Origin: Candidatus Latescibacterota bacterium
GTDB lineage: Bacteria; Latescibacterota; UBA2968; GCA-2709665
Direction of reading: 5' to 3'
Assembly (NCBI GenBank): GCA_965222075.1
Contig: OZ244937.1
Coordinates: 2,560,001 to 2,624,000 of the forward strand
DNA: 64,000 nt
This document shows, piece by piece, positions 39,143-52,317 of the stretch (within the stretch, counting starts at the first letter, position 1; the number at the start of each line of letters is the position of its first letter). The translations under genes were made by a program, and so were the position numbers. The notes below the pieces were generated by a model. It was given only the letters and a program-made list of their open reading frames with translations, was not told the DNA's origin and ran no database searches.

Positions 39143-40723
39143 CTATCTTGCAAAATCGATGGCCCGGGTCTCCCGAATCACCGTAACCTTCACCGGCCCC
39201 GGACAGGTCGCGTCCGCCTTGAGCCGCTCGACAATTTCCGTGGCCAGCCGTTCGGTATCTTCATCGCTCATCATCTCACAGTCGGCAATCACCCGAACCT
39301 CCTGACCGGCATTGATCGCATAGACCTTATCCACCCCCTCAACCAGCCGGGCGGTCGACTCCAGCCGCTCCAGCCGGCGCACATAGTTCTCGATGACCTC
39401 CCGCTGCGCCCCCGGTCGCGACCGGGAAATGATATCGGCCGCATCTACCAGCACCGCAATGGGCGAAATAGGATCGGCATCCCCGTGGTGCGCCTCAATG
39501 GCATTGATCACAACGGGATCCTCTCCATACTTTCGCCCCAGGTCCGCCCCATTCTCCCCGTGCGTCCCCTCCGCCTCGTGGGTCAACCCTTTGCCCACAT
39601 CGTGCAGCAGCCCGGCGCGTTTGGCAAGCTGGGAATCCAGCCCCAATTGCGTGGCCATCGTCCCTGCTAAGAAGGCCGCTTCCTTGCTGTGGTTGAGCAC
39701 ATTCTGCCCGTACGTCGTCCGGAACTTCAAGCGCCCCAAACACTCGATCAACCGGTCGTGCAAACCGGGCACGCCCGCGTCGAACGCCGCCTGCTCACCC
39801 GCCTCTCGGATCACCTCCTGTATCGATTCCCTGGACCTCTGAACGATCTCCTCGATCCGTCCTGGATGGATGCGCCCGTCTAAAACGAGCCGTTCCAAGG
39901 CCATCTTGGCAACCGCCCGCCGGATCGGATCGAATGCGGACAGAACCACCGCCTCTGGCGTATCGTCAATCGTCACATCCACGCCGGTGGCCATTTCAAA
40001 CGCCCGTATGTTTCGCCCCTCTCGACCGATAATCCGTCCCTTCATATCATCCGACGGGAGGCGAACAATCGCCTGGGTCGATTCAACCGTATGGTCTGCG
40101 GCCAGACGCTGGATGGCGCTGGTGATAATCTCCTTCCCTTCGTCGTTGGCCCTGGCAAGGGCATCTTCCCGGATCTCCTTGATCCGCCATGCCGCATCCT
40201 GCCTCGCCTCATCCTCTAAATTGGCCATCAGAATCGCCTTGGCTTCATCCTGGGTCAGCCCTGCAATCCGCTCCAGCCGTGTATTCTGTTCCAAAATCCG
40301 GGCCTCTAAGCCCCGGGCCTTTGTCTGGATCTGTTCCTGCAGCCGGGCAAGCTCCTCTTCCCGGGACGCCGTATTCCGCTCCTTGTGGTTTAACAGATCC
40401 GCCCGCCTGTCGAACTGCCGTTCCCTGCTGCTCATTTTTATCTCTTCCCGTTTGAGCTGCTCCCACTTGTCCTCTATCTCCTGCTCAAACTGGAGGCGCT
40501 CCTGGTGCATCTGGTCCTTGGCCTCTAAGACCGCCGTCCGCTTCATCGATTCGGCCTCTTTTTGGGCATCATCGAGGATCTTTTCAGCCGTGACCTCCGC
40601 TCGGTACGTCTTGCTGTGCGCAAACTTGCTCCTGCCCAGCCATCCCAGAACGAATCCCAGCAACAGCAGACCGGCCGACAGGATCATGACCACCAAGGTT
40701 CCTTCTATCGACATATTCAGCAT
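39143..40723 (-). CDS. rny: Ribonuclease Y
   Basis: N-terminal TM and coiled coil; KH motif KGRIIGREGRNIR; HD motif LLHDVGK. Confidence 0.97.
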   Translation of the reverse strand: MLNMSIEGTLVVMILSAGLLLLGFVLGWLGRSKFAHSKTYRAEVTAEKILDDAQKEAESMKRTAVLEAKDQMHQERLQFEQEIEDKWEQLKREEIKMSSRERQFDRRADLLNHKERNTASREEELARLQEQIQTKARGLEARILEQNTRLERIAGLTQDEAKAILMANLEDEARQDAAWRIKEIREDALARANDEGKEIITSAIQRLAADHTVESTQAIVRLPSDDMKGRIIGREGRNIRAFEMATGVDVTIDDTPEAVVLSAFDPIRRAVAKMALERLVLDGRIHPGRIEEIVQRSRESIQEVIREAGEQAAFDAGVPGLHDRLIECLGRLKFRTTYGQNVLNHSKEAAFLAGTMATQLGLDSQLAKRAGLLHDVGKGLTHEAEGTHGENGADLGRKYGEDPVVINAIEAHHGDADPISPIAVLVDAADIISRSRPGAQREVIENYVRRLERLESTARLVEGVDKVYAINAGQEVRVIADCEMMSDEDTERLATEIVERLKADATCPGPVKVTVIRETRAIDFAR

Positions 40724-40776
40724 GTCCGATCTCCTTAAGGATAGCCCATTTTGTCCATAAAAAAAACCCGCTTGCG

Positions 40777-40950
40777 CCCCCCCAGCACCTATTCCGCTGC
40801 GCCATCCTGCACAAATCGCACAGCAGACGGATTCTCAAGTCAACGTGAACGCAGCAGGGAGTCTGCCCGGCATAGCCCTCATGTGGCCCGCCGCAACAGC
40901 ATACACCCCATTTCCTGGTTGGTCCCGACCACGCCCAGGGTGCCGGGAAA
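40777..40950 (-). ncRNA. ssrS: Putative 6S RNA
   Basis: Sits between zapA and rny (known 6S synteny); ~175 nt with pairing ends (UCCCGGCACC / GGUGCUGGGG) and a downstream U8 tract. Confidence 0.65.
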
Positions 40951-40957
40951 CCCACTC

Positions 40958-41251
40958 TCAATCGCGCTGTGTGATCCGGTTCGTCGTATCGGCCAGTCGA
41001 TCGGCCTTCCTGCAAACGACCTGCTCCATACGCTGGCCGGATTCCTCTTCTTTGAACAGCTCATCGGCTAAGTTTACAGCCGTGAGCACCGCGATTTTGG
41101 CAACCGACCGTAGCGAAAGCGTGTTGGCAATTTCTCGCATCTTACGATCAACGTACCGGGCCACCTCACGGGTATGATCGGAATCGGTTTTAGACGCAAT
41201 TTTATATTCTGTGCCAAAAATATGGACGTGTACAAGCGGTAAATCCGACAT
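40958..41251 (-). CDS. zapA: Cell division protein ZapA
   Basis: V.IFG.EY, VA.YVD.KM.EI and AVL.A.NLADE. Confidence 0.92.
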   Translation of the reverse strand: MSDLPLVHVHIFGTEYKIASKTDSDHTREVARYVDRKMREIANTLSLRSVAKIAVLTAVNLADELFKEEESGQRMEQVVCRKADRLADTTNRITQRD

Positions 41252-41265
41252 GGGGGCAGATTTCC

Positions 41266-41571
41266 CTATTCTGTGTCCACAGCATCCAGCCGAGACAACA
41301 TCGCCTCGATTTTCTGTTGAATCTCCTCCTTATTCTCAATCAGAGAGGCATTTTCCTCACAGACCTTCCGGAGCCGATCCCGCTCGGCGCGTAACTCGGA
41401 AAGGGTCTTCTCCTGAAGCTCCACCTTCTCTCCAAGTTCCTGATTCCGTTGCTTCAGGTCTGCATTTTCGCCGCGTAAATGCTCCATCCTGTCGACCGCC
41501 CGGTCGATCTCTGCCACCAGACGATTGACGCCACCGTGCAACTCGTTTTCCTCCTGCGTGTCAGCGTCCAT
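41266..41571 (-). CDS. ZapB-like coiled-coil protein
   Basis: Continuous heptad coiled coil ending KIEAMLSRLD; directly upstream of zapA; TTGACT-N17-TAAATT promoter at 41624-41652. Confidence 0.75.
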   Translation of the reverse strand: MDADTQEENELHGGVNRLVAEIDRAVDRMEHLRGENADLKQRNQELGEKVELQEKTLSELRAERDRLRKVCEENASLIENKEEIQQKIEAMLSRLDAVDTE

Positions 41572-41689
41572 CCCAATTCCCTCCAAATGGGGGTCTCTTA
41601 CGACCAACACAGCCTCATAGGCCAATTTAACACCTCTGGCCCTTAAAGTCAAGCGTCTGACAACAACCTTCTGGTTCTTCTTAACTTAT

Positions 41690-41753
41690 AAAAAAAACGG
41701 AATCTGCATAGAGGGCGATCCACCGTCTGAACCGCCTCCCCCATGCAGATTCC
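41690..41753 (-). terminator. Long-stem intrinsic terminator after rplT
   Basis: GGAATCTGCAT...ATGCAGATTCC followed by T8 on the minus strand. Confidence 0.75.
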
Positions 41754-41844
41754 ATCTTCAAATCAGACGTATCAAAGCAGGGAATCGGGAAGGTAAACCG
41801 CCCGGTTTTGGAGAGCAGGGAGGGGCCCTGCTCCCTATTCCCCT

Positions 41845-42198
41845 CTAAATGTGCTGCCTGGCCTGCTCGGACAGGGCCGCAAATGCCTCTGCATCTGTCA
41901 TAGCCAGATCTGCCAGCACCTTTCGGTTGACATCCACGCCGGCCTTTTTCAGACCGTTCATCAGGCGGCTGTAGGACAGCCCGTTGAGCCGGGCGGCCGC
42001 GTTGATCCGCACAATCCAAAGTGCCCGAAACGTCCGCTTCTTCTGTCTCCGGTCACGGTAGGCATAGGCCAGCCCGCGATTGACACTGTCGTCGGCAGTG
42101 CGGTACAGCTTGCTCCGCCCACCCCAGTATCCCCGGGCGGCCTTGAGCACCTTCTTTCGTCTGCGACGCGATGCAACTCGATTTGTTACCCTCGGCAT
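41845..42198 (-). CDS. rplT: 50S ribosomal protein L20
   Basis: MPRV..RRRRKK.LK.ARGY.G, YAYRDRR, FR.LWI.RINAA. Confidence 0.99.
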
Positions 42199-42208
42199 CG
42201 ATTCCCTC

Positions 42209-42403
42209 CTAAACGACCAGCATCCGCTTGACCCGCTTTAGATCCGCTTTGTGGATCGTAGCCGGCTTCCGCAGATGCATTTTACGTTTACTCGACTTCT
42301 TGGCCAGGTTATGGGTAGCCGTTGACTTGCCCCGGCGGAGGCTTCCAGACTTTCGCCGCCCGAAACGCTTGGCAGCACCCCGATGACACTTCATTTTAGG
42401 CAC
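42209..42403 (-). CDS. rpmI: 50S ribosomal protein L35
   Basis: [13 protein letters not shown] and H.L.KK..KRK..LR. Confidence 0.97.
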
Positions 42404-42556
42404 GGATCACTCCTTGATGTTAATTTCGTGATTCTTCGCTCGATTCTCGTTATTCGATCACGCGTCGCGAGTCCAAAGCCGCGGGTCCTCCACCCAACCC
42501 CGGTTTGGGGTGACTCGTGATGCGTGACCCATAGACGGTCTTTTCACGATCCACAA

Positions 42557-43093
42557 TTACTTGGGAATCAGGATAATCACGACGTTGCGCCCTTCATCCC
42601 GCAGCGGCGTCTCTGGGGTTCCGACCTCCTTGAGGTCTTCTTCCACCCGTTTCAACAACGCCCGCCCCTGTTCCCGATACATATTCTGGCGACCCCGGAA
42701 TTCCACCGATACCTTCACCTTGTGACGCTGCTTCAGGAAATTCTCGGCGTGTTTCATCTTGAACTCATAATCGTGGTCGCTGATCATCGGTCCAAGCCGG
42801 ATCTCCTTGAGCTGCGAACCGCTCTTCTTTCCCTTTCTGGCCTTCTTGCTCTGCTCGTATCGGTACTTTCCATAATTCATAATACGGCAGACAGGCGGCC
42901 GGGCATTCGGCGCAACCTCCACCAGATCCAGGTCTTGCGCTTCGGCCATTTCCAGAGCCTGCTTCGTCTCTACAATACCGAGTTGCTCGCCCGACTCGGA
43001 AATCAGCCGAACCTGATGGATCCGGATCTGTTCGTTGACCCGGGATGTATTCTCCTGCCTGCGCTCTCTGAAACCTCTGGAACCTCGATTGAT
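42557..43093 (-). CDS. infC: Translation initiation factor IF-3 (probable ATC start)
   Basis: RVNEQIR, LDLVEV.P.A.PPVC.IM.YGK..YE; GGAGGTGA SD followed by in-frame ATC. Confidence 0.96.
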   Translation of the reverse strand: MNRGSRGFRERRQENTSRVNEQIRIHQVRLISESGEQLGIVETKQALEMAEAQDLDLVEVAPNARPPVCRIMNYGKYRYEQSKKARKGKKSGSQLKEIRLGPMISDHDYEFKMKHAENFLKQRHKVKVSVEFRGRQNMYREQGRALLKRVEEDLKEVGTPETPLRDEGRNVVIILIPK

Positions 43094-43179
43094 ACGATCA
43101 CCTCCAGCGTGAAACCCAGAGCACGCGACAGGCCGCCCGCTGCCCCGGGACGATAGATGGCTTCCTCTCTGCACACTCC

Positions 43180-45123
43180 TTACGACATCTTCTTTTCCTG
43201 GATCTCCTGCTGCATTTTGGCCGTCACATCTTCCAAAGACAACTTTCCCAGGTCTCCTTCCCCGTGTCGGCGCACCGAAACCGTTCCTCCTCCGACCTCC
43301 TGTTTGCCCACAATCAGCATATAGGGAATCTTCTGAACCTCTGCCTCTCGGATCTTATAACCCAGTTTGGCGTCCTGATCGTCCACCTCTGCACGGATGC
43401 CCGCCGCCTTAAGGCGCCGCGCCACCTCGGCAGCATAATCCGAAAACGGGTCGGAAACCGGCAGCACAATCGCCTGCACCGGCGCCAGCCACAGCGGGAA
43501 GTTGCCCGCATAGTGCTCGATCAACACCCCGAAAAACCGCTCCATCGACCCCAGCAGCGCCCGGTGGATCATATAGGGGCGGTGGTGCTTGCCGTCCTGA
43601 CCCACAAAACTCAGGTCGAACCTCTCGGGCAGGTTGAAATCGAACTGGATCGTGGTGCACTGCCACTCCCTGTCTAAGGCATCGTTAATCTTCACATCGA
43701 TCTTCGGCCCGTAAAACGCGCCGCCGCCCTCATCCACCCGGTAGGGCAGCTTCTGCGAGTCCACCGCCCGCCGCAGGGCATCGGTCGCCCGGTCCCAATC
43801 TTGAGGGTCTCCTACGTAGTCTTCCGGCCGTGTAGAGATATACACGTTAAAATCCTCAAACCCGAAAGATCTCAGGATGTAGAGCGTGAAGTCGATCACG
43901 CGGACGATTTCATCCTCTACCTGGTCCGGTCGGCAGAAAATGTGCGCATCGTCCTGCGTGAACCCACGCACCCGCATCAGCCCGTGGAGCACCCCCGCGC
44001 GCTCATACCGGTAGACCGTGCCCAGCTCCGCCCAGCGGAAGGGAAGCTCCCGGTAGCTCCGCAGCCGATTCTTGTAGATCATGCTGTGAAACGGGCAGTT
44101 CATCGGCTTGGCAAAGTACTCCTGCCCATCGATATCCATCGGGGCGTACATATTCTCCCGGAAGAAATCCAGGTGCCCGCTGGTCTGCCACAGCCTGGAC
44201 CGCCCGACATGGGGCGATCCGACCAGTTCATACCCACCCTCGTAGTGGGCCCCGCGCCAGAAGTCTTCTATCTCGTTCCGTATCCGGGCGCCTTTGGGGT
44301 GCCACAGCGCCAGCCCGGGACCGACGGTATCGCTGATCGAAAAGAGATCCAGCTGCGCTCCCAGCATCCGGTGGTCCCGCTGTCTGACCCCTTCCAGCCG
44401 TTCCAGATAGGCCTTCAGATCCTTTTTATCCGGAAACGAAATCCCGTAGATCCGCTGCAGCATCTTGTTGGATTCGTCTCCACGCCAGTACGCCCCAGAA
44501 GAACTCAACAGCTTGACCGCCTTGATCCGCCCTGTGCCCGGCACGTGGGGACCCCGGCAGAGGTCGCACCACTTATCCGCATTCCGGTAGATGCTGATCG
44601 TCTCGTCCGGCCCGATATCCTCTAAGATCTCCAGCTTGTAAGGCTCGTCCAGATCCGAAAAAATCTTCACCGCCTCATCCCGGGACGCCTCCACCCGTTC
44701 AAAGGGCTGGTCTTCTCGAATGATCTCCTGCATTCGGCCCTCGATCCCTTCCAGATCCTCCGGCGTAAAAGGCTCGTCCCGGTCGAAATCGTAGTAAAAC
44801 CCATTTTCGATCGGAGGGCCGATGGTTACCTTCGTATCCGGGAAAAGGTCCTGCACGGCCTGCGCCATAATGTGGGCCGTGCTGTGCCAGTAGACCTCCT
44901 TACCCCCGTCGCTGGCAAAGGTCAGAAGCTCGACTTCAGCATCTTCCCACAGCGGATAACTCAGGTCAACCGCTTCCCCATCCACCCTCCCGGCCAGGGC
45001 CGCACGCGCAAGCCCCGCACCGATCGATTCGGCGACCTCTAAAAGGGTGGCGCCTGTGGGGAAGTCTTTTTGAGACCTATCAGGCAGTGTAACGGCAATG
45101 CAACCGTTCTTCTCTTCTGACAT
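43180..45123 (-). CDS. thrS: Threonine--tRNA ligase
   Basis: HSTAH, DLCRGPH, RDHR, KPMNCP.H, RVRGFTQDDAH and GAFYGPK. Confidence 0.99.
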   Translation of the reverse strand: MSEEKNGCIAVTLPDRSQKDFPTGATLLEVAESIGAGLARAALAGRVDGEAVDLSYPLWEDAEVELLTFASDGGKEVYWHSTAHIMAQAVQDLFPDTKVTIGPPIENGFYYDFDRDEPFTPEDLEGIEGRMQEIIREDQPFERVEASRDEAVKIFSDLDEPYKLEILEDIGPDETISIYRNADKWCDLCRGPHVPGTGRIKAVKLLSSSGAYWRGDESNKMLQRIYGISFPDKKDLKAYLERLEGVRQRDHRMLGAQLDLFSISDTVGPGLALWHPKGARIRNEIEDFWRGAHYEGGYELVGSPHVGRSRLWQTSGHLDFFRENMYAPMDIDGQEYFAKPMNCPFHSMIYKNRLRSYRELPFRWAELGTVYRYERAGVLHGLMRVRGFTQDDAHIFCRPDQVEDEIVRVIDFTLYILRSFGFEDFNVYISTRPEDYVGDPQDWDRATDALRRAVDSQKLPYRVDEGGGAFYGPKIDVKINDALDREWQCTTIQFDFNLPERFDLSFVGQDGKHHRPYMIHRALLGSMERFFGVLIEHYAGNFPLWLAPVQAIVLPVSDPFSDYAAEVARRLKAAGIRAEVDDQDAKLGYKIREAEVQKIPYMLIVGKQEVGGGTVSVRRHGEGDLGKLSLEDVTAKMQQEIQEKKMS

Positions 45124-45145
45124 TTTAAAACCCTGAACCTCAACG

Positions 45146-45262
45146 AAAACAAAAAAACGCGCCACCTGCCATCTGCGCGCCCAATTCAGCAAAGCATCAG
45201 GTGGCATTCATCCGTCCCTTTGGCTCTCCTCGCAAATGGGTTAAGAGGGAATTGGACCTAAA
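45146..45262 (-). promoter_or_regulatory. Structured 5' leader of the thrS-infC-rpmI-rplT operon (terminator-like hairpin)
   Basis: GCCACCTG..CAGGTGGC stem (45161-45205) followed by a U-rich tract before the ATG. Confidence 0.55.
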
Positions 45263-45270
45263 GTTAGGTT

Positions 45271-45299
45271 AATTTATACTATATATCGTATATTGTCAA
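45271..45299 (-). promoter_or_regulatory. sigma70-type promoter of thrS
   Basis: TTGACA-N17-TAAATT in an AT-rich context. Confidence 0.75.
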
Positions 45300-45389
45300 G
45301 CGAAAACTCCAGACCAGGTGCCGTCCAAAAACAGCGTATAAAAAGAAAAATAAAAGGCTCCTGCCTCCCCTCTCTCATCCCTTTTCCTT

Positions 45390-46196
45390 TCAACCTCCCA
45401 AGAGATAGAACGTCTCAACCGGATACGCCATTTTACGCACAGAGACCTTCAGATCATCCACCATACGGTCCATCAAAGCGTCATAGTGCTGCGCCATCCC
45501 CTTCTCCCTTCCACCCAGCGTCCGGGCGGGAAAAGAGACCACCACATAATCCGCCCGCAATCGCCTCAGTAAATCCCCCGTGGCCCCCTTCATCTGCTGC
45601 TCCAAACAGGGGACTGACTTGAACAGGAAGACCACATCCGCTTCCAGGTCCGGCCCCGACACCAGAATATCCCTGCAAACCGCCCCCGGATCGTGCCCCA
45701 CGCATCTGAAAAAATCGTTGGCCGCGCAGACCAGCCGGTGGTCAATGTCGTACGCCACGTATCGGGCCGCCCGGTCCAACTCCATCCAGAGCAGCGCAAA
45801 AGGATTCAGCCCGCAGGCCAGGTCCAGGAGGGTGCGCGGCTGCCCGATCTCCTCGAACAGATCCCGGTAAAACCCGGCCATGATAGGCAGGCGCTCCGCC
45901 GTTGAAGCATGGCACTGAAGAATCTCATAACAGGCCGCCCGCAGGTCGGCGTCCGGCAGGGAAGGAGAAAGCCTGCCCAGCAGTTCCTCCACCCGGGCAA
46001 ACTGAAAAGCATCGAAATACGCGCCGTAAACCTGGTGCAGCTTCCGTTTTGCCGCCCTCACCGCCGTCTTGCCGTTCGGATGGCGGCGCCCTGCCCAGTC
46101 GGCCACACGGTAGAGCGTATCCTCACACAGGTGCCGGTACTTCCTGGCCTGCCTCAGCCGGTCCACAACCTCCTGACAAAAATCGCTGTGTGTCAA
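45390..46196 (-). CDS. ArmA/Rmt/Sgm (FmrO) family guanine-N7 methyltransferase homologue
   Basis: K.KLHQ..GAY, HAST.ERL, DLACGLNP, K..PCLEQQ and VVSFP..TLGGR.KGM...Y. Confidence 0.88.
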   Translation of the reverse strand: MTHSDFCQEVVDRLRQARKYRHLCEDTLYRVADWAGRRHPNGKTAVRAAKRKLHQVYGAYFDAFQFARVEELLGRLSPSLPDADLRAACYEILQCHASTAERLPIMAGFYRDLFEEIGQPRTLLDLACGLNPFALLWMELDRAARYVAYDIDHRLVCAANDFFRCVGHDPGAVCRDILVSGPDLEADVVFLFKSVPCLEQQMKGATGDLLRRLRADYVVVSFPARTLGGREKGMAQHYDALMDRMVDDLKVSVRKMAYPVETFYLLGG

Positions 46197-47299
46197 AGCG
46201 GAAGCCCCTTACCCGGCCGGTCCAGGGCTCGAAGACGGTCTATCAGGTTGCCGTAAAACTTGAGATTGTGTATCGTCGCAAGCCGGTGCGCAGAGGCGTC
46301 GTTAACCTCGAAGAGGTGATGCAGATAAGCCCGGGTATACCGCCTGCAGAACAGACAGTCGCAGCGCTCGTCAATCGGCAGCCGATCCCTGGCATACCGC
46401 TCGTCCCCGATGTAGAGATACCGGTAGAACGCCCTGCCCTCTAAGCCGCTCGTCTCCAGCGCATCGTTTAAAACGTAGAGCCGCTTCTGGCGGGCGTCAC
46501 GCGTCGGGATCGTGCAGTCGAACGTATCGTACCCCATCCCGAACGCCTCCACCAGATTTTCCGGTTTGCCGATCCCCAGCGCATGTTTGGACAACGCTTC
46601 GGGAATCAACTCGGCCACATACCCCACCCCGTCCACCAGCATCCCTTCCAAATCGATTGGCCACCCGCCATACCCGTACCCGTCGAACCCGATCTCTAAC
46701 AGCGCGTCGGCGCATCGTTTTCGAAGGTCGGGATTTTCTCCGCCCTGGACAATACCGTAAAGCAGAGGCCGTTTTCCCCCCAGTGCCCCCTTCTCCACCT
46801 GGCGATCGTATTCCACCTTGCATCTGCGGGCCCATTCAATCGTGTGTTCAACGCTCTCCACCTGTGCCGTCTCAGGCTCATTGGGATGGGTGCAGTGATC
46901 CAGGCAGAACATCAGATCCGCCCCTATACTAAACTGTTTCTGGATGCACTTTTCGGGCGTCAGCACCCGCCGCTTCTGCTTTTTTCCCAGCCGGTACGTG
47001 AACCCCCGGCTGGAAATGCGGCCCCCTCCGGGATCTTCCGCAACCAGTGAAAAAACCTGAAACCCGCCCGAATCCGCGGCCACCGGACCGTCCCATCCCA
47101 TAAATCGGTGGATGCCACCCAAACTTGAGACCAAAGAAATCCCCGGATGGGACGAAAGGTGCAAGGTGTTCACCATCACCCCCCCCACGCCGCAGGCTGC
47201 CAGATCGACCGAATCCAGCGTTCGCACCACCCCCCGCGTGCCGTCCGGCAAAAACGCGGGCAGCCTGAGTTCCCCGCGGCCCGTCTGCAAAACCTTCAC
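46193..47299 (-). CDS. tgt: tRNA-guanine transglycosylase family protein (divergent)
   Basis: DSGGFQ, LDHC, VQGG, FDC..PTR, Zn site CDC..C and HN; AAGGAGG RBS before GTG 47299. Confidence 0.88.
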   Translation of the reverse strand: MKVLQTGRGELRLPAFLPDGTRGVVRTLDSVDLAACGVGGVMVNTLHLSSHPGISLVSSLGGIHRFMGWDGPVAADSGGFQVFSLVAEDPGGGRISSRGFTYRLGKKQKRRVLTPEKCIQKQFSIGADLMFCLDHCTHPNEPETAQVESVEHTIEWARRCKVEYDRQVEKGALGGKRPLLYGIVQGGENPDLRKRCADALLEIGFDGYGYGGWPIDLEGMLVDGVGYVAELIPEALSKHALGIGKPENLVEAFGMGYDTFDCTIPTRDARQKRLYVLNDALETSGLEGRAFYRYLYIGDERYARDRLPIDERCDCLFCRRYTRAYLHHLFEVNDASAHRLATIHNLKFYGNLIDRLRALDRPGKGLPL

Positions 47300-47384
47300 C
47301 CCATCGGCCTCCTTCTCCTCAGAACGCATCCAGCCCCAGCCCTCCCGGATCCGCCACCACATCCACGGCCGCAACCAGATCCAC

Positions 47385-48038
47385 TTAAGGCAAATGCAGC
47401 ATCCGGTGAATCCGGCACGACAGCCGCCAGTTGGGGTGCCGCGTCAAAATCTCCAGCGCCTTGTGAATATACTCTGACCTGCTCGACTCCGGCTGCAGGT
47501 AGATATACTCGGCCCGGTCTTCTTCGACCATATCCTCCCGAAACGTCTTCCCCACCACGTACTTCAACTCCGTAATCCGCGTCAACCCCGCTGCAATCGT
47601 CCGCCGCTTGGGCGACACCGTCCAGTGCTCGATCAGTTCATAAAGCGCCGGGGCCGGATCGATCGTCCCGTTCGTTTCAATATGCAGCCGGTAGCCTGCA
47701 TCCTTCAACGACCCGCAGAGCGGAATAATATTCTGCCCCAGCGGCTCCCCTCCCGTCAAACAGACCCACTCCACCGTATGCCGCCCCACCTCCTCCAAGA
47801 CCTGTTCGACCGACATCTCCACATAGGAATCGAACTCCGTATCGCAGAAAAAACAGCGCAGATTGCACTTGGCGAGCCGTACGAAGGTTGTGGGCTGCCC
47901 CACCCGAAGCCCTTCCCCTTCGATCGAGTAAAAAATCTCATTGACCTGTAAGACCCGTCCCTCCTCCCGCCAGACCGGCATCCGATCCGCGGGGGCAGGG
48001 GGAATCCCTTCCAGGCTATCGAGCTCGCGTTCCGACAC
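47385..48038 (-). CDS. queE: 7-carboxy-7-deazaguanine synthase QueE (radical SAM)
   Basis: EIFYSIEGEG, FVRL..CNLRCFFCDT, TGGEP, IETNG, VSPK and YLQP; GAGGAG RBS before GTG; start approximate. Confidence 0.9.
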   Translation of the reverse strand: MSERELDSLEGIPPAPADRMPVWREEGRVLQVNEIFYSIEGEGLRVGQPTTFVRLAKCNLRCFFCDTEFDSYVEMSVEQVLEEVGRHTVEWVCLTGGEPLGQNIIPLCGSLKDAGYRLHIETNGTIDPAPALYELIEHWTVSPKRRTIAAGLTRITELKYVVGKTFREDMVEEDRAEYIYLQPESSRSEYIHKALEILTRHPNWRLSCRIHRMLHLP

Positions 48039-48071
48039 CAAAGTGCTCCTCATCCAGGTGGCCAGTGACCC

Positions 48072-48147
48072 ACCTGCCTGCAGCGCAGAGCACTGCGCAG
48101 GCAGGTCCCTCCCTGTGAAATATACTACCCATTCGCTGCATCCGCAA
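48072..48147 (-). promoter_or_regulatory. queE promoter and 5'-UTR hairpin
   Basis: TTGCGG-N17-TATATT, then the ACCTGCCTGC..GCAGGCAGGT stem. Confidence 0.5.
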
Positions 48148-48161
48148 GAACAAGCCCTTGA

Positions 48162-48196
48162 AATTTCTTGACAACGCCTCCTGGAGTCAAGAAATT
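48162..48196. promoter_or_regulatory. Perfect 11-bp inverted repeat between divergent genes
   Basis: AATTTCTTGAC-N13-GTCAAGAAATT. Confidence 0.6.
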
Positions 48197-48282
48197 GTAG
48201 CAATCAACCGTCTCCAAAACGGAACGGCCCTGGTCTCCATTCTCCCGTATCTGACAATCCGCCTTCAAAAAGGAGATCCCCA

Positions 48283-49074
48283 ATGCACCCCTTCGAAGCC
48301 CTCAAAGTACCCCAGGGCAGCGTCGGCATCCACTGGTTCGGACAGAGTTCCTTCGCCCTTAAAAACACCTCGGACCCCATCGTCCAGGTCGACCCCTACT
48401 TTCCCAGGGAGCGTCCCGCCGACCGGTTCATCCACGCCCAGCCCCCGCTGGATGAGGCAGCGCTCAAAACCGACTTCGTCCTCCTCACCCACAACCACGG
48501 AGACCACACCTGCGTCGAGTCCCTCCGCCGCATCCACGCCGCCTTCCCCGAAGCCCGCTACATCGGCCCTCCCGAAAGCGTGGCGAACATGCTGGAGAAC
48601 GACATCCCCGAGGGCCTCCTCACAACCGTCACGGCCGGAGAGTCTGCCTCTCTGGGCCCCATAACCGCCCACGCCGTCTGGTCCAAACCCATGGAAGGCG
48701 TGCCGGAAGAGGAGATCAAGCCCCCCGACGTCCAGCACCTCGGCTACGTTGTCGAAGCCGGGCCGGTACACGTCTTCATCTCCGGAGACCCCATCAACAC
48801 CATTGCCGACCACGACGAACTCCTTCAACCTATTGCCTTCCTCCAGCCCAACATCGGCCTGCTCACCACCCACCCGGACGAAGGCGAATTCCCCTTCTTC
48901 GCCGGATCGATCGAAACCGCCCTGAAACTCGGCCTGGAGGCGGCGGTGCCGGCCCACTACGACTGTTTCGTCACCCGCACCTACGACCCCAACAAATGGG
49001 CCGCCATGTTTCCGGAGATCGGCCCTCAACCAATCATCATCCCGTACAACGACTCAATCGTCTACCCGGGTTGA
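48283..49074 (+). CDS. MBL-fold metallo-hydrolase (UlaG-like)
   Basis: W.GQS, VDPY, THNHGDH, SGD and PAHYD. Confidence 0.9.
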   Translation: MHPFEALKVPQGSVGIHWFGQSSFALKNTSDPIVQVDPYFPRERPADRFIHAQPPLDEAALKTDFVLLTHNHGDHTCVESLRRIHAAFPEARYIGPPESVANMLENDIPEGLLTTVTAGESASLGPITAHAVWSKPMEGVPEEEIKPPDVQHLGYVVEAGPVHVFISGDPINTIADHDELLQPIAFLQPNIGLLTTHPDEGEFPFFAGSIETALKLGLEAAVPAHYDCFVTRTYDPNKWAAMFPEIGPQPIIIPYNDSIVYPG

Positions 49075-49128
49075 CCTCTTCCCTTCCAGCGAAATAATCG
49101 ACGCAAATCAAATTAAAGAAAGGACAAT

Positions 49129-49815
49129 GTGCAAATCCGGAAACACCACGCCGTCATTTTCGATGTGGACGGCCTCATCATAGATACTGAAGAACTCTAC
49201 TGGAAAACGTTCAACAAAACCCTCGGCGATTACGGCTTCTCGCTCACCCGGAGAGAATACACCGTCTGCGTGGGGCACCCGGTGGAAGACAACTGCCGGT
49301 ATGCCGTTGATCGCTATCATCTTGAAACCTCGCCCGGGGCCTTCTGCAAAATCTGGATGGCGCGGTTTGAGCGGGCCATCTCCGATCCGGAAAAGATCGC
49401 CCTCATGCCCGGCTTCCTGGACCTGTTGGCACACGTCAGGCGCAAACCCTACCGCCTCGGTATTGCCTCTGCCACGCAGCGCTCCCGCATGGAAAAGACC
49501 CTCCGAAACGGTTTGCTTTCCCGCCTGGAAGGCCTCTCTTCCCTGAATGAAATCTTCACGGCCATGCTCTCCGGCAGCGACATTGAACGGCCCAAGCCCG
49601 CTCCTGACATCTACCTCCTGACCGCAGAACGCCTCGGCGTATCCCCCAAAACATGCCTGGCTTTGGAAGACAGCGAAGCCGGCGTCCGGTCTGCGAAGGC
49701 TGCGGGCATGGCCGTCATCGCCGTCCCCAACCTCTTCACCGCCCACCAGGACCACAGCGCGGCCGATGCTGTACTGGCGCATCTGATGGATGCGGTGAAG
49801 GAAGGGCATGTGTGA
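49129..49815 (+). CDS. HAD-family phosphatase (beta-PGM/CbbY-like)
   Basis: FDVDG...DTE, KPAPDIY and EDS..G..SA..AG. Confidence 0.92.
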   Translation: MQIRKHHAVIFDVDGLIIDTEELYWKTFNKTLGDYGFSLTRREYTVCVGHPVEDNCRYAVDRYHLETSPGAFCKIWMARFERAISDPEKIALMPGFLDLLAHVRRKPYRLGIASATQRSRMEKTLRNGLLSRLEGLSSLNEIFTAMLSGSDIERPKPAPDIYLLTAERLGVSPKTCLALEDSEAGVRSAKAAGMAVIAVPNLFTAHQDHSAADAVLAHLMDAVKEGHV

Positions 49816-49950
49816 CAAGCAACTTATGTTCTCTCTTCCACAAATGACCTCTCAACGCCCTCAGGCGTGAGGAGCCTGCAACGATCCTACCCGGAGCACC
49901 CGCGTTCTGGACTTCCACAAGGCCAAATTTGAAATTTTTTCAAAACCACC

Positions 49951-50676
49951 TCATGCATACGCTTCCGCATCATCCTCCGGTTCGTAGCCAAGCTCCTCAC
50001 GCGCGTTCTGGAGGTCCCAGTAGGCCCGGGTATTGTTGGAAATCCCGAAGTAGACCCCGAACCCCACCGACTCGGCCTCAATGCTTCGCCACACAAGCTG
50101 CACCGTATCCCGGTGGCTCAGCCAGGAGGAGAGAATCCGGTCGCCCTTCCGGTTGATTACCGCCTCGGCCGGTTGAAAGGACCCGATGCGGAGGCAGATC
50201 ACGGACAGCCCGAAGGCGTCCACGTAGTACCTCCCCAGGTCCTCTCCGAATGCCTTGCTCACCCCGTAGTAACTGTCCGGCCGCGCCGGCATCTCCGGCG
50301 TCGTATAAACCCCGTTCTTTTCGTAGTACCCGATCACGTGGTTGGTGCTGGCGAACACCACCCGGTTCACCCCGGTCCTCCGGGCAGCCTCATAAATATT
50401 GTACGTCCCCCGGATATTTGTCTCCAGCACCTCCTCGAACGACGCCCCCCCGGACGGATTGCCGGCCATGTGCACCACCGCATCAACCCCGTTCACGGCC
50501 TCGACCATCCGGTCCAGGTCGGTAATGCTGGCAACGCAGACCTCTTCTCCCGGCGCGCCCGGCAGCACGGTGTTGTGATACAGCAGCCTCAGATCGTAGC
50601 GCTCTTTCAACCCCTCTCGCAGCACCTGTCCGATCCTTCCGGCTGCGCCGGTAATCAACACCTTTTTATGGCACAT
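49951..50676 (-). CDS. NAD-dependent epimerase/dehydrogenase (uronate dehydrogenase-like)
   Basis: TGAAG.IG, ASTNH, YYGVSK, LRIGS and WLS.RD. Confidence 0.85.
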   Translation of the reverse strand: MCHKKVLITGAAGRIGQVLREGLKERYDLRLLYHNTVLPGAPGEEVCVASITDLDRMVEAVNGVDAVVHMAGNPSGGASFEEVLETNIRGTYNIYEAARRTGVNRVVFASTNHVIGYYEKNGVYTTPEMPARPDSYYGVSKAFGEDLGRYYVDAFGLSVICLRIGSFQPAEAVINRKGDRILSSWLSHRDTVQLVWRSIEAESVGFGVYFGISNNTRAYWDLQNAREELGYEPEDDAEAYA

Positions 50677-50713
50677 ACCCCTTCCTTTCACCGCATGGAT
50701 GAAGTGTCATATC

Positions 50714-51472
50714 CTATCCTTTTACAGTAAGAATACGCTCTGCGTTCCCACCCAGGACCGCCGTCGCGTCCTCGTCGGACAGATCGGTCACAACGCGGGA
50801 CAGCGCGGCGTAGGGAATGAACAGAGGGGCATGGGACCCGAAAAGGAGCTTCTCTCTCAACCCATCCTCTACCAGCACCTTCAACGCATCCATCCCATCG
50901 GCCTGGGACACGTCGGCATAGAGGTTGGGCAACCCCAGCAGCCGGTCTCCGAGCGCCCGGATTTCGGCCGTCCTCGGCCCCCCGATGACCACCGTCAAAC
51001 CGGGATGCCGTTCAGCAGCATCTGCGACCTCGGCCGCAGCGACGTCGGGCACCTGCGCCAAGGGGTGCTGCCGCCTGGGGTCTTCCAGGCGCGTCTGCAC
51101 AATAACCGCCAGCCCCTCCCGTGACAGGGCCTGGAGGAGACCATCGGCGTCGGCAAGCGCGTAGGGCGAATAGGCGGGCAGCAGCCGGACCAGTCTGACC
51201 CGCAGTTCCCGAACCGCCCGGTTCAGTTCGTCCCGCCAGGTCGCCACGGTGGGGTCCAGCACGGGCACCGGCCAGATGTTGTCGGTGGTGCCGGCCGCCC
51301 GGTAAAGCGCGCCGTTGAAGCGGTGGGGGTTGCGGCACCAGGCCGCTTCTAAGGGCGAGATGCAGATCCGGTCCACCCCGTATTCCTGGAGCGAAGCCCG
51401 TACGCTGTTGAGGTCTCCGACCACCGGGTGCGAGGGCCAGTATCCTGTAAATGCGTTCAGGTCGATAATCAT
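50714..51472 (-). CDS. Amidohydrolase-2 fold protein lacking canonical metal ligands
   Basis: IIDLNA in place of DxHxH and LFGSHAP; ATGA overlap with the upstream paralogue. Confidence 0.75.
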   Translation of the reverse strand: MIIDLNAFTGYWPSHPVVGDLNSVRASLQEYGVDRICISPLEAAWCRNPHRFNGALYRAAGTTDNIWPVPVLDPTVATWRDELNRAVRELRVRLVRLLPAYSPYALADADGLLQALSREGLAVIVQTRLEDPRRQHPLAQVPDVAAAEVADAAERHPGLTVVIGGPRTAEIRALGDRLLGLPNLYADVSQADGMDALKVLVEDGLREKLLFGSHAPLFIPYAALSRVVTDLSDEDATAVLGGNAERILTVKG

Positions 51473-52317
51473 GGTGCATCTCCTTCCGGAACCCCGACCC
51501 CTGCCCACTCTGGCAGCAGCCGGGCCGTGTTGTTCCAGAGGATGTCCTGTTTGGCCGCATCAGGCAGGTGGGTGCCCAGCGTTTTGCCCAACTGCACCCC
51601 GAAGTGGCGGATGGGGGCGTCCGAGCCGTACACCACCCGCTCCGGCCCCAGGGCATCCACGGCGATCTCCACGAAGCCGCTTTCCGGATCGCCTCCGGAG
51701 GTATCCACGAAAATGTTCGGACAATCGACCACATCTTCGATCCCGCGCAGGCCGTGGCCGTTGAGGTGTGCCATCACAATCCGTGCTTCCGGATGGCGTT
51801 TTGCCAGGCCCGCAACATCCGCAGGAAACGACTCGCCCACGAGATTCCCCGTCGTCTTCATCCACGCGTGCTGGAGCACCGGTACCCCCAGCGCCACCGC
51901 CCGCTCCAGAATCGGGTCCAGCCCCGGGTCCGTCGCCCGCCGCGCCACCCACAACTTGATCCCGCTCATCCGTTCGCCCGCCACACACCGATCGATCTCC
52001 TCCACCGCCTCGTCCGGATACATCGGGTTCACATAACAGAACGGCAGAAACACCTCCGGCGCGGCCTCCCGCATCCTCAGCGCATAGTCGTTCGCCTCCC
52101 GGCACTCCGCCACCGACGGCTCCCGGGGACAGGTCGTATACAGCGAAAACAGGCACATCTTCTCCACCCCCGACCGCTTCGCCGATTCCACCAGCAGCCG
52201 CGCATCCTCCCGGATCGACGCCACCTTGTAAAGCCCGAAACAGTCCAGCGGATGCACGTGCACATCCAGCGCAGGCCAGGGCGGCCGCAGCCGGTTTCGT
52301 ACATCGTCAGGCGTCAT
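51469..52317 (-). CDS. Amidohydrolase-2 family protein
   Basis: DVHVH, GIKL, LQH, MAH and YGSDAP. Confidence 0.88.
   Translation of the reverse strand: MTPDDVRNRLRPPWPALDVHVHPLDCFGLYKVASIREDARLLVESAKRSGVEKMCLFSLYTTCPREPSVAECREANDYALRMREAAPEVFLPFCYVNPMYPDEAVEEIDRCVAGERMSGIKLWVARRATDPGLDPILERAVALGVPVLQHAWMKTTGNLVGESFPADVAGLAKRHPEARIVMAHLNGHGLRGIEDVVDCPNIFVDTSGGDPESGFVEIAVDALGPERVVYGSDAPIRHFGVQLGKTLGTHLPDAAKQDILWNNTARLLPEWAGVGVPEGDAP

Follow-up and report, generated by a model that had tools for sequence, protein, structure and literature searches.

A tRNA-guanine transglycosylase paralogue paired with Rmt-type 16S rRNA methyltransferases in many bacterial phyla

INTRODUCTION

Why would a gene for an enzyme of the tRNA-guanine transglycosylase (TGT) family overlap one for a methyltransferase of the kind that confers aminoglycoside resistance? 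The question is raised by a stretch of 64,000 nucleotides (nt) from a Candidatus Latescibacterota bacterium (assembly GCA_965222075.1, contig OZ244937.1, positions 2,560,001 to 2,624,000), here called the window. The host genome is a single contig of 5.36 Mb and is 97.6% complete. On the minus strand of the window lie, in this order, genes for a QueE-like radical SAM protein, a TGT paralogue and an FmrO/Rmt-family methyltransferase, followed by thrS and infC (Table 1). An earlier note on this DNA had proposed that the first three genes form a self-contained unit for a new modification at position 7 of guanine. They are indeed co-oriented minus-strand open reading frames of the families that it named (a QueE-like protein, a TGT matching PF01702 and an FmrO protein matching PF07091). 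The TTGA overlap that it described can also be read directly, the TGA stop of the tgt paralogue (46195-46193) overlapping the TTG start of the methyltransferase (46196-46194).

Genes for methyltransferases of the Arm/Rmt group are familiar from antibiotic producers, which they protect against their own products, and as acquired determinants of pan-aminoglycoside resistance. To our knowledge, their role in the many other bacteria that carry them is unexplained. The functional unit that emerges from our analysis is a module of two genes, the TGT paralogue and then the Rmt-type methyltransferase, set between the housekeeping genes queE and thrS.

RESULTS

The TGT and methyltransferase genes are linked in many phyla

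We surveyed FmrO genes using an alignment of 30 homologues of the window methyltransferase (alignment A1), which gave 80 loci, counting one genome per species. These span more than a dozen phyla, and the taxa represented include Latescibacterota, Gemmatimonadota, Armatimonadota, Nitrospiraceae, Dehalococcoidia, Anaerolineae, Acidobacteriota, Aminicenantes, Hydrogenedentota, Bacillota, Dictyoglomota, Spirochaetota, Bacteroidota, Ignavibacteriaceae and Phycisphaerae. The first point to note is that a TGT gene of the same 'GGWP' type as the window copy lies on the same strand and no more than 635 nt from the FmrO gene in 74 of the 80 loci, and upstream of it in 73. These linked TGTs are all nearer to the window copy than to the canonical enzyme, with identities of 41–95%. 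Five of the six loci that have no TGT are cut by the end of a contig less than 750 nt upstream. The two open reading frames are between −17 and +5 nt apart in 30 of the 68 loci for which both are listed; many of the other rows have over-extended start calls and are uninformative as to spacing.

The same coupling is seen within the phylum of the host, where 168 genomes were searched for FmrO (above its cut-off) and for this TGT (at E <= 1e-80). Each was found in 20 genomes, and the 20 genomes are identical. The two genes are adjacent in 19 of these and lie on two contig ends in the remaining one. In the reciprocal survey, which started from the TGT and covered 80 metagenome loci, 79 TGTs carry the signature of the subfamily, and FmrO adjoins the TGT in 60 loci, with a further nine being uninformative (less than 400 nt downstream). 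Thus, in many phyla the two genes are kept together in one orientation and are often coupled in translation, and the coupling of the TGT to the Rmt-type enzyme that the earlier note suspected is real and far beyond chance.

QueE is a neighbour and not part of the unit

The inclusion of QueE in the unit did not survive comparison with other genomes. The protein itself is QueE-like, matching Radical_SAM at 38.4 bits and having five QueE models as its top NCBIfam matches (62–99 bits, against cut-offs of 200–300). Its gene is the only copy in the host genome (tblastn, E <= 1e-3). The genome also holds a canonical tgt, two QueC matches, one QueF and one QueA, so that the second tgt and the queuosine genes for which the earlier note had suggested looking are present. 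One QueC match (locus L084, G000:C1:1887181-1887810) lies in an open frame of 509 amino acids (aa), about twice the usual length of QueC, which could reflect a fusion or an over-extended frame.

Among the 80 FmrO loci, QueE occurs in only nine, all of which also have thrS; ThrS is present in 10, and these loci form a Latescibacterota-like set in which ThrS and InfC come after the TGT–methyltransferase pair. In five of the nine QueE-bearing loci, a gene for a GFO/IDH/MocA oxidoreductase lies between QueE and the TGT. Relatives without the pair were also examined. In two of them (G059 and G058) thrS follows queE after ∼420–460 nt, and in a third (G078) it does so within ∼1.2 kb. In G077, thrS does not follow queE within the 1.5-kb flank, and in G046 no QueE match was found. 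Since queE and thrS are neighbours in relatives without the pair, the pair appears as an insert in a queE–thrS–infC backbone, and the trio is not self-contained as had been claimed. The suggestion in the earlier note that a resistance-type methylase had simply inserted into a queuosine operon therefore holds as far as insertion beside queE is concerned, but what is inserted is the TGT–methyltransferase pair and not a methylase alone. QueE, being the only copy in its genome and a neighbour of thrS in pair-less relatives, is a bystander.

The methyltransferase resembles a genuine G1405 enzyme

The window methyltransferase is the sole FmrO protein of the host genome. It matches PF07091 at 160.7 bits over residues 17–254, and scores 224.6 bits on the Rmt_gen model NF000466, under the cut-off of 250. 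Like the Arm/Rmt/Kgm enzymes that make 7-methylguanosine (m7G) at position 1405, it can be aligned over its full length, including the N-terminal 30S-docking domain, to the structures of Sgm (over 6–264), RmtC (over 2–257), RmtB and ArmA, and the residues on which docking, SAM binding and flipping of G1405 depend are conserved. For RmtC, an excerpt of 10.1101/2023.03.13.532395 assigns docking on helices h45 and h44 to Lys20, Tyr21, Arg50 and His54, the active site to Tyr60, Ser107, Asp160 and Lys204, and the distortion of h44 to Arg241 and Met245. The corresponding residues in the window protein are K19, Y20, K50, H54, Y60, S98, D150, K193, R230 and M234. Over 77 partner methyltransferases, K19 is kept in 72, H54 in 70, S98 in all 77, K193 in 75 and M234 in 73. 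The alignment shows that the window enzyme retains the residues by which RmtC docks on the 30S subunit and flips G1405, and on these grounds it looks like a genuine G1405 methyltransferase. The single 16S gene of the host reads CCGCCCGTCAAGC, with a G at the position equivalent to 1405. What sets the window gene apart from the Arm/Rmt/Kgm genes is that it is chromosomal, belongs to an uncultured Latescibacterota lineage, has no mobile element beside it and is natively paired with a TGT.

In 19 of the 80 loci, a second FmrO paralogue stands beside the TGT (for example L055 3422-4201, L079 5182-5964 and L065 6875-7669). In the second copies, H54, Y60, S98 and K193 are retained throughout (18 of 18). 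Some of the first copies are altered, with Y20A in 7 of 77, H54Y in 7 of 77 and Y60F in 14 of 77, which suggests divergence among the FmrO copies.

The TGT paralogue has kept its catalytic residues and lost the peptide switch

The window TGT matches PF01702 at 298 bits (297.7), compared with 526.6 bits for the canonical copy in the same genome, to which it is 37% identical. On the bacterial equivalog model TIGR00430 it reaches 288.2 bits, under the cut-off of 306.75, and its match to the Zymomonas mobilis Tgt has an E-value of 7e-66. It has the same fold and length as bacterial Tgt (Z. mobilis, Escherichia coli), and its motifs ADSGGFQ, LDHC, FDCTIPTR and CDCLFC...HH align to those of the Z. 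mobilis enzyme. The equivalents of Asp102, Asp156, Gln203 and Asp280 are kept in the subfamily, as are the PTRxAR motif and the ligands of the CxCxxC...H zinc site; those of R286 and R289 and the Zn subdomain are likewise kept in the paralogue. A canonical Tgt is present as well in all six genomes checked, namely the host and five of five other carriers.

We aligned 184 TGT sequences, among them 64 rows from FmrO-linked loci and the canonical Tgt of the host. In place of the GGL(A/S)VGE of canonical enzymes, a GG[WY]P motif is found in 87 rows, comprising all 64 FmrO-linked sequences and 23 database rows. In a FastTree phylogeny, for which only SH-like support values were obtained, all 64 linked TGTs fall in a single clade of 87 rows with 99% support, and the canonical Tgt of the host falls in the other half of the tree. 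In Z. mobilis numbering, which we mapped by eye from the alignment, the two groups are best told apart by an Asp in place of Val45, a Trp in place of Leu231, a Pro in place of Ala232 and a Tyr in place of Ile276. The position of Glu235 is variable in the subfamily, with no conserved Glu. The change at 231/232 is present in every one of the 87 GG[WY]P rows, and it falls on the 'peptide switch' of the guanine pocket. In the Z. mobilis enzyme, the Leu231/Ala232 peptide flips, turning its NH towards the pocket with guanine bound and its carbonyl towards it with preQ1 bound, Glu235 stabilises both states, and the Ala232 amide contacts guanine N7 through a water molecule (excerpt of PMC3660597). Because a proline at 232 has no amide hydrogen, a guanine-type N7 contact would be impossible in this subfamily. 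Judged by its residues, the paralogue has therefore kept the nucleophile, the general acid/base, the ligands of the guanine edge and the Zn site, and has lost the Leu231/Ala232/Glu235 switch.

Members of the TGT superfamily have been retargeted before: DpdA of the Dpd system and Cap10 of type IV CBASS act on substrates other than tRNA, as described in excerpts of the literature. The window protein is not one of these. It scores 17.4 bits on the DpdA model NF041059 (cut-off 200) and 17 bits on the PADLOC DpdA model, and in place of DpdB/DpdC, QueC-like or CBASS neighbours it has thrS and queE. Nor is its subfamily linked to the queA or yajC-type genes that neighbour bacterial Tgt; its linkage is to genes for rRNA methyltransferases. 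A prediction of the complex between the TGT (alignment A2) and the methyltransferase (A1) gave a score of 0.01 against a mark of 0.32, which speaks neither for nor against binding.

Other architectures were seen among TGT proteins. In P0230, P0232, P0239, P0257 and P0260, a canonical-type TGT (423–482 bits) carries a C-terminal Methyltransf_30 (MnmC-like) domain, an arrangement unrelated to the fusion of TGT with FmrO described below. In P0224, the TGT domain is interrupted at residues 238–340 by a DUF559/endonuclease-like insert.

The recurrent neighbours act on the decoding centre

The genes that recur beside the pair are those of RsmI, RsmH and RsmF-like enzymes, which modify C1402 and C1407 of 16S rRNA and thus act no more than five nucleotides from G1405. 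RsmI-like genes (TIGR00096, 189–220 bits, cut-off 167.9) are present in 40 of the 80 loci, in most cases immediately 5′ of the TGT. In 12 loci, all of them from Chloroflexota, an RsmF-like gene comes after the pair, and RsmH precedes an RsmI–TGT–methyltransferase array in three. Of five genomes checked, two have no RsmI above the cut-off other than the one adjacent to the pair, and in another two the adjacent copy scores best. None of these genes stands beside the pair in the window, and TIGR00096 found no RsmI in the host genome or in a Dehalococcoidia carrier (G002); loss of Cm1402 may accompany the pair in some lineages.

The same proteins also occur as fusions. The TGT is fused to FmrO in P0121 (two members on two contigs) and to RsmI in P0134, a singleton that may reflect misassembly. 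RsmI is fused to FmrO in P0271 and P0272, from two Actinoallomurus species; these combine PF00590 with PF07091, and the source names them as RsmI only. A further apparent TGT–methyltransferase fusion, L005, was rejected when translation revealed a TGA between the genes. In the Chloroflexota loci L065, L069, L073, L076, L078, L080 and L083, a gene for a LysM-domain protein lies directly 5′ of the TGT.

The pair is present on clinical plasmids

The window TGT finds genes on clinical plasmids at 45–47% identity, compared with ∼37% for canonical tgt. They occur in the arrangements rsmH–tgt–rmtG, tgt–rmtD2 and tgt–(metallophosphoesterase)–rmtB2, and rmtD2, rmtG and rmtB2 are annotated as resistance determinants. 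The plasmid TGTs carry the signatures GGWP, xLDxCTxP and PTREARH, which are those of the window subfamily. Across the three plasmids, the TGTs are 65–77% identical to one another and the Rmt partners 39–57%. The order of the two genes is identical to that in the window. The plasmid arrays differ in being mobilised by IS91/ISCR and IS26 elements in Enterobacterales, whereas the window module is chromosomal and environmental.

These TGT genes have been noticed before. A coding sequence for a 'putative tRNA ribosyltransferase' upstream of rmtG is mentioned in an excerpt of PMC3904158, and an excerpt of a review lists an operon with 'rsmH, tgt, and rsmL', that is, rsmH–tgt–rmtG (PMC9311965). The statement in the earlier note that no pathway coupling a TGT to an Rmt-type enzyme had been described thus holds for function, but not for the arrangement itself. 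In the literature covered, which did not extend to subscription journals, the mentions are at the level of annotation and no function is assigned to a TGT beside an Rmt gene. For RmtD, formation of m7G1405 has been reported (excerpt of PMC3923132, citing Gutierrez 2013). Since RmtD is also TGT-linked on plasmids, a TGT-linked Rmt enzyme methylates ordinary G1405.

Features of the window

The coordinates of the module and its surroundings are collected in Table 1. The TGT paralogue has a maximal open reading frame from TTG 47374, but a likelier start is ATG 47329, which has GGGAGGG just 5′ of it. For the QueE-like gene, position 48147, at which the earlier note had ended the unit, is not an in-frame start. 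A single promoter had been claimed for the trio, but the promoter scan found no promoter-like site 5′ of queE; the only other minus-strand match lies inside queE (47759-47730). The hairpin and the promoter-like site downstream are both between the methyltransferase stop and thrS, and so the proposal that thrS has its own promoter is borne out to the extent that these elements are present. However, three promoter-like sites were found in all, against 1.4 ± 1.4 in shuffled sequences, so that no site is significant.

Table 1. Features of the module and its flanks (window coordinates)
Feature	Position	Strand	Remarks
QueE-like radical SAM gene	47385-48203	-	start uncertain: TTG 48203, ATG 48053 or ATG 47981
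TGT paralogue, 'GGWP' subfamily	46193-47374	-	PF01702
TTGA overlap of tgt-paralogue stop and methyltransferase start	46193-46196	-	read from the sequence
FmrO/Rmt-family 16S rRNA (guanine-N7) methyltransferase	45390-46196	-	PF07091, NF000466
Terminator-like hairpin and T-run, just 3′ of methyltransferase stop	45352-45369	-	consensus match only
Promoter-like site before thrS, TTGACA-17-TAAATT	45271-45299	-	10/12 matches, consensus match only
thrS	43180-45207	-	conserved backbone 3′ of module
infC	42557-43174	-	after thrS

A PADLOC search returned, besides the 17-bit DpdA match, only weak viperin-like radical SAM matches, and a reading of the locus as a defence system was dropped. An open reading frame of 263 aa (48283-49074, plus strand) is divergent from queE and has conserved counterparts 5′ of queE in L006, L024, L031 and L035 (cluster 15). 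GC skew is negative in all 2-kb bins of the window (1-64000), ranging from −0.05 to −0.27, which is consistent with mostly minus-strand genes or with a single replichore.

DISCUSSION

The tie between the TGT paralogue and Rmt-type methyltransferases in many phyla points to an undescribed joint modification of the ribosome decoding site. The nucleoside m7G carries a positive charge, has no lone pair on N7 and has a weakened glycosidic bond, and 7-methylguanine is known to bind TGT pockets as an inhibitor. We propose that the methyltransferase would make m7G1405 in 16S rRNA, and that the TGT would then exchange a base on the same segment of the 30S decoding centre, at or next to G1405. On the conserved residues and the gene neighbourhoods, we put the likelihood that this outline is correct at a little short of even. 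The more detailed version is tentative, and we consider it more probably wrong than right. Here the leaving base would most likely be m7G1405 itself, cationic and labile, attacked by the conserved Asp nucleophile. The incoming base would be guanine-like with a substituted or non-nitrogen position 7, the simplest candidate being preQ1, which the host makes, since it has QueF. QueE would supply only the general 7-deazaguanine pool of the cell. The paralogue would in that case be the first rRNA-guanine transglycosylase, acting in a methylation-primed swap of m7G1405 for a 7-deazaguanine. As Rmt enzymes work alone, the TGT would probably depend on the product of the methylase and not the reverse. 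Among the alternatives listed in the earlier note, the one that this proposal resembles, a non-tRNA target such as rRNA or the removal of m7G, fits the data best, the partners being methyltransferases of the 16S decoding centre.

Several observations weigh against a base exchange in rRNA. Rmt enzymes confer their phenotype on their own, so that the TGT is not needed for methylation. The canonical Tgt requires a UGU hairpin loop (excerpt of PMC10103133); G1405 is part of helix 44 and has the context C-G-U. The linkage itself is not absolute. One FmrO gene (L046) has 4158 nt available upstream and no TGT, and 11 of the 80 metagenome TGT loci have at least 400 nt downstream and no FmrO match, although three of the 11 have less than 700 nt. 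One clear exception is L131, a metagenome contig in which a GGWP-type TGT without FmrO is flanked on one side by hisS and a ParA-like gene and on the other by mnmA, a neighbourhood that is tRNA-flavoured and contrary to an rRNA reading. In other clear exceptions, the TGT lies beside a HAD hydrolase gene or an NYN-domain gene.

The supply of a 7-deazaguanine is a second difficulty. Searches of the 80 loci with the host proteins found no QueC, QueF or QueA homologue. A convincing QueC is lacking from two of five carrier genomes, all five of which have a canonical Tgt, and a 7-deazaguanine donor is therefore not implied by context. Outside the Latescibacterota-like lineage, there is no link between the pair and deazaguanine genes. 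Rfam searches (E <= 0.1) of window positions 40000-52000 gave no preQ1 or other riboswitch and no T-box, and those of 11 related loci out of the 80 gave tRNAs only and no riboswitch. Finally, G1405 methylases interfere with RsmI and RsmF (excerpt of PMC3923132), and this interference could account for the clustering of RsmI and RsmF genes here, tying them to the methyltransferase and remaining silent on the TGT.

The strongest competing explanation is that the paralogue continues to act on tRNA, at G34 or elsewhere and perhaps inserting a different base, and that it is merely co-regulated with the rRNA methyltransferases of the decoding centre, for example for retuned decoding on m7G1405 ribosomes. 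Its position just below the equivalog cut-off, with a strong match to the Z. mobilis Tgt, places it very near bacterial Tgt, the R286 and R289 equivalents and the Zn subdomain remain, and some GGWP-type TGTs have no FmrO nearby, including the one between hisS and mnmA. However, a canonical Tgt is already present in every genome checked, the co-occurrence with FmrO in the phylum is strict, fusions join the TGT to FmrO and to RsmI, each an enzyme that acts on 30S subunits, and the switch that recognises guanine N7 is lost. We therefore regard continued action on tRNA as improbable, if deserving of serious consideration.

A role for the TGT as an eraser or proof-reader is also unlikely, and more clearly so. 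Here the enzyme would restore G in place of m7G, either at 1405 or off target, thereby limiting the fitness cost of the methylase. Methylation of G1405 does carry such a cost and blocks RsmI (excerpt of PMC3923132), and the changes in the TGT pocket would fit an m7G ligand. Against this, a writer and an eraser that are co-transcribed, often from overlapping reading frames, and even fused would run a futile cycle if they acted at one site, and clinical plasmids retain the TGT beside rmtD2, rmtG and rmtB2, which are annotated as resistance determinants.

Could the order of events be the opposite, with the TGT inserting a 7-deazaguanine that the Rmt-type enzyme then methylates? This was the first alternative in the earlier note. 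The strict linkage of the pair would suit it, and the two FmrO paralogues found in 19 of the 80 loci could correspond to more than one methyl transfer. Yet the methyltransferase keeps the full set of RmtC residues that position the N7 of G1405, a 7-deaza base has no N7, and TGT-linked RmtD is itself reported to make m7G1405 (excerpt of PMC3923132), which leaves methylation of an inserted base very doubtful.

A self-contained position-7 pathway of queE, tgt and the methyltransferase is in turn highly improbable: the three genes are co-oriented and closely spaced, and the arrangement recurs in nine related loci, but this QueE is the only one in a genome with the full queuosine pathway, it is absent from 71 of the 80 loci, the oxidoreductase gene intervenes in five of the nine, and queE is found next to thrS in relatives without the pair. 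That a resistance-type methylase and a spare tgt came together by chance or hitch-hiking, as the patchiness of the pair (20 of 168 genomes) and the IS91/ISCR-type elements that flank the plasmid copies and move adjacent DNA might suggest, is scarcely credible given the recurrence of order, strand and tight spacing in more than a dozen phyla, the joint divergence of the two genes on plasmids and the dedicated TGT clade with its fixed active-site signature, and for practical purposes the linkage statistics exclude it.

Outside antibiotic producers, then, Rmt-type methyltransferases are usually locked to a dedicated TGT subfamily and have as neighbours the enzymes for C1402 and C1407, and clinical plasmids have taken up the same pair with rmtB2, rmtD2 and rmtG. 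If the TGT does act on 16S rRNA, this would be the first base-exchange modification of ribosomal RNA and would give the TGT superfamily a new class of substrate in addition to tRNA, DNA and protein. It would also alter the view of where the clinical 16S methylases came from and of what they do in their native hosts. Should the proposed swap of m7G1405 prove correct, the plasmid-borne 'resistance' methylases would be one half of an ancient two-step module for rRNA editing.

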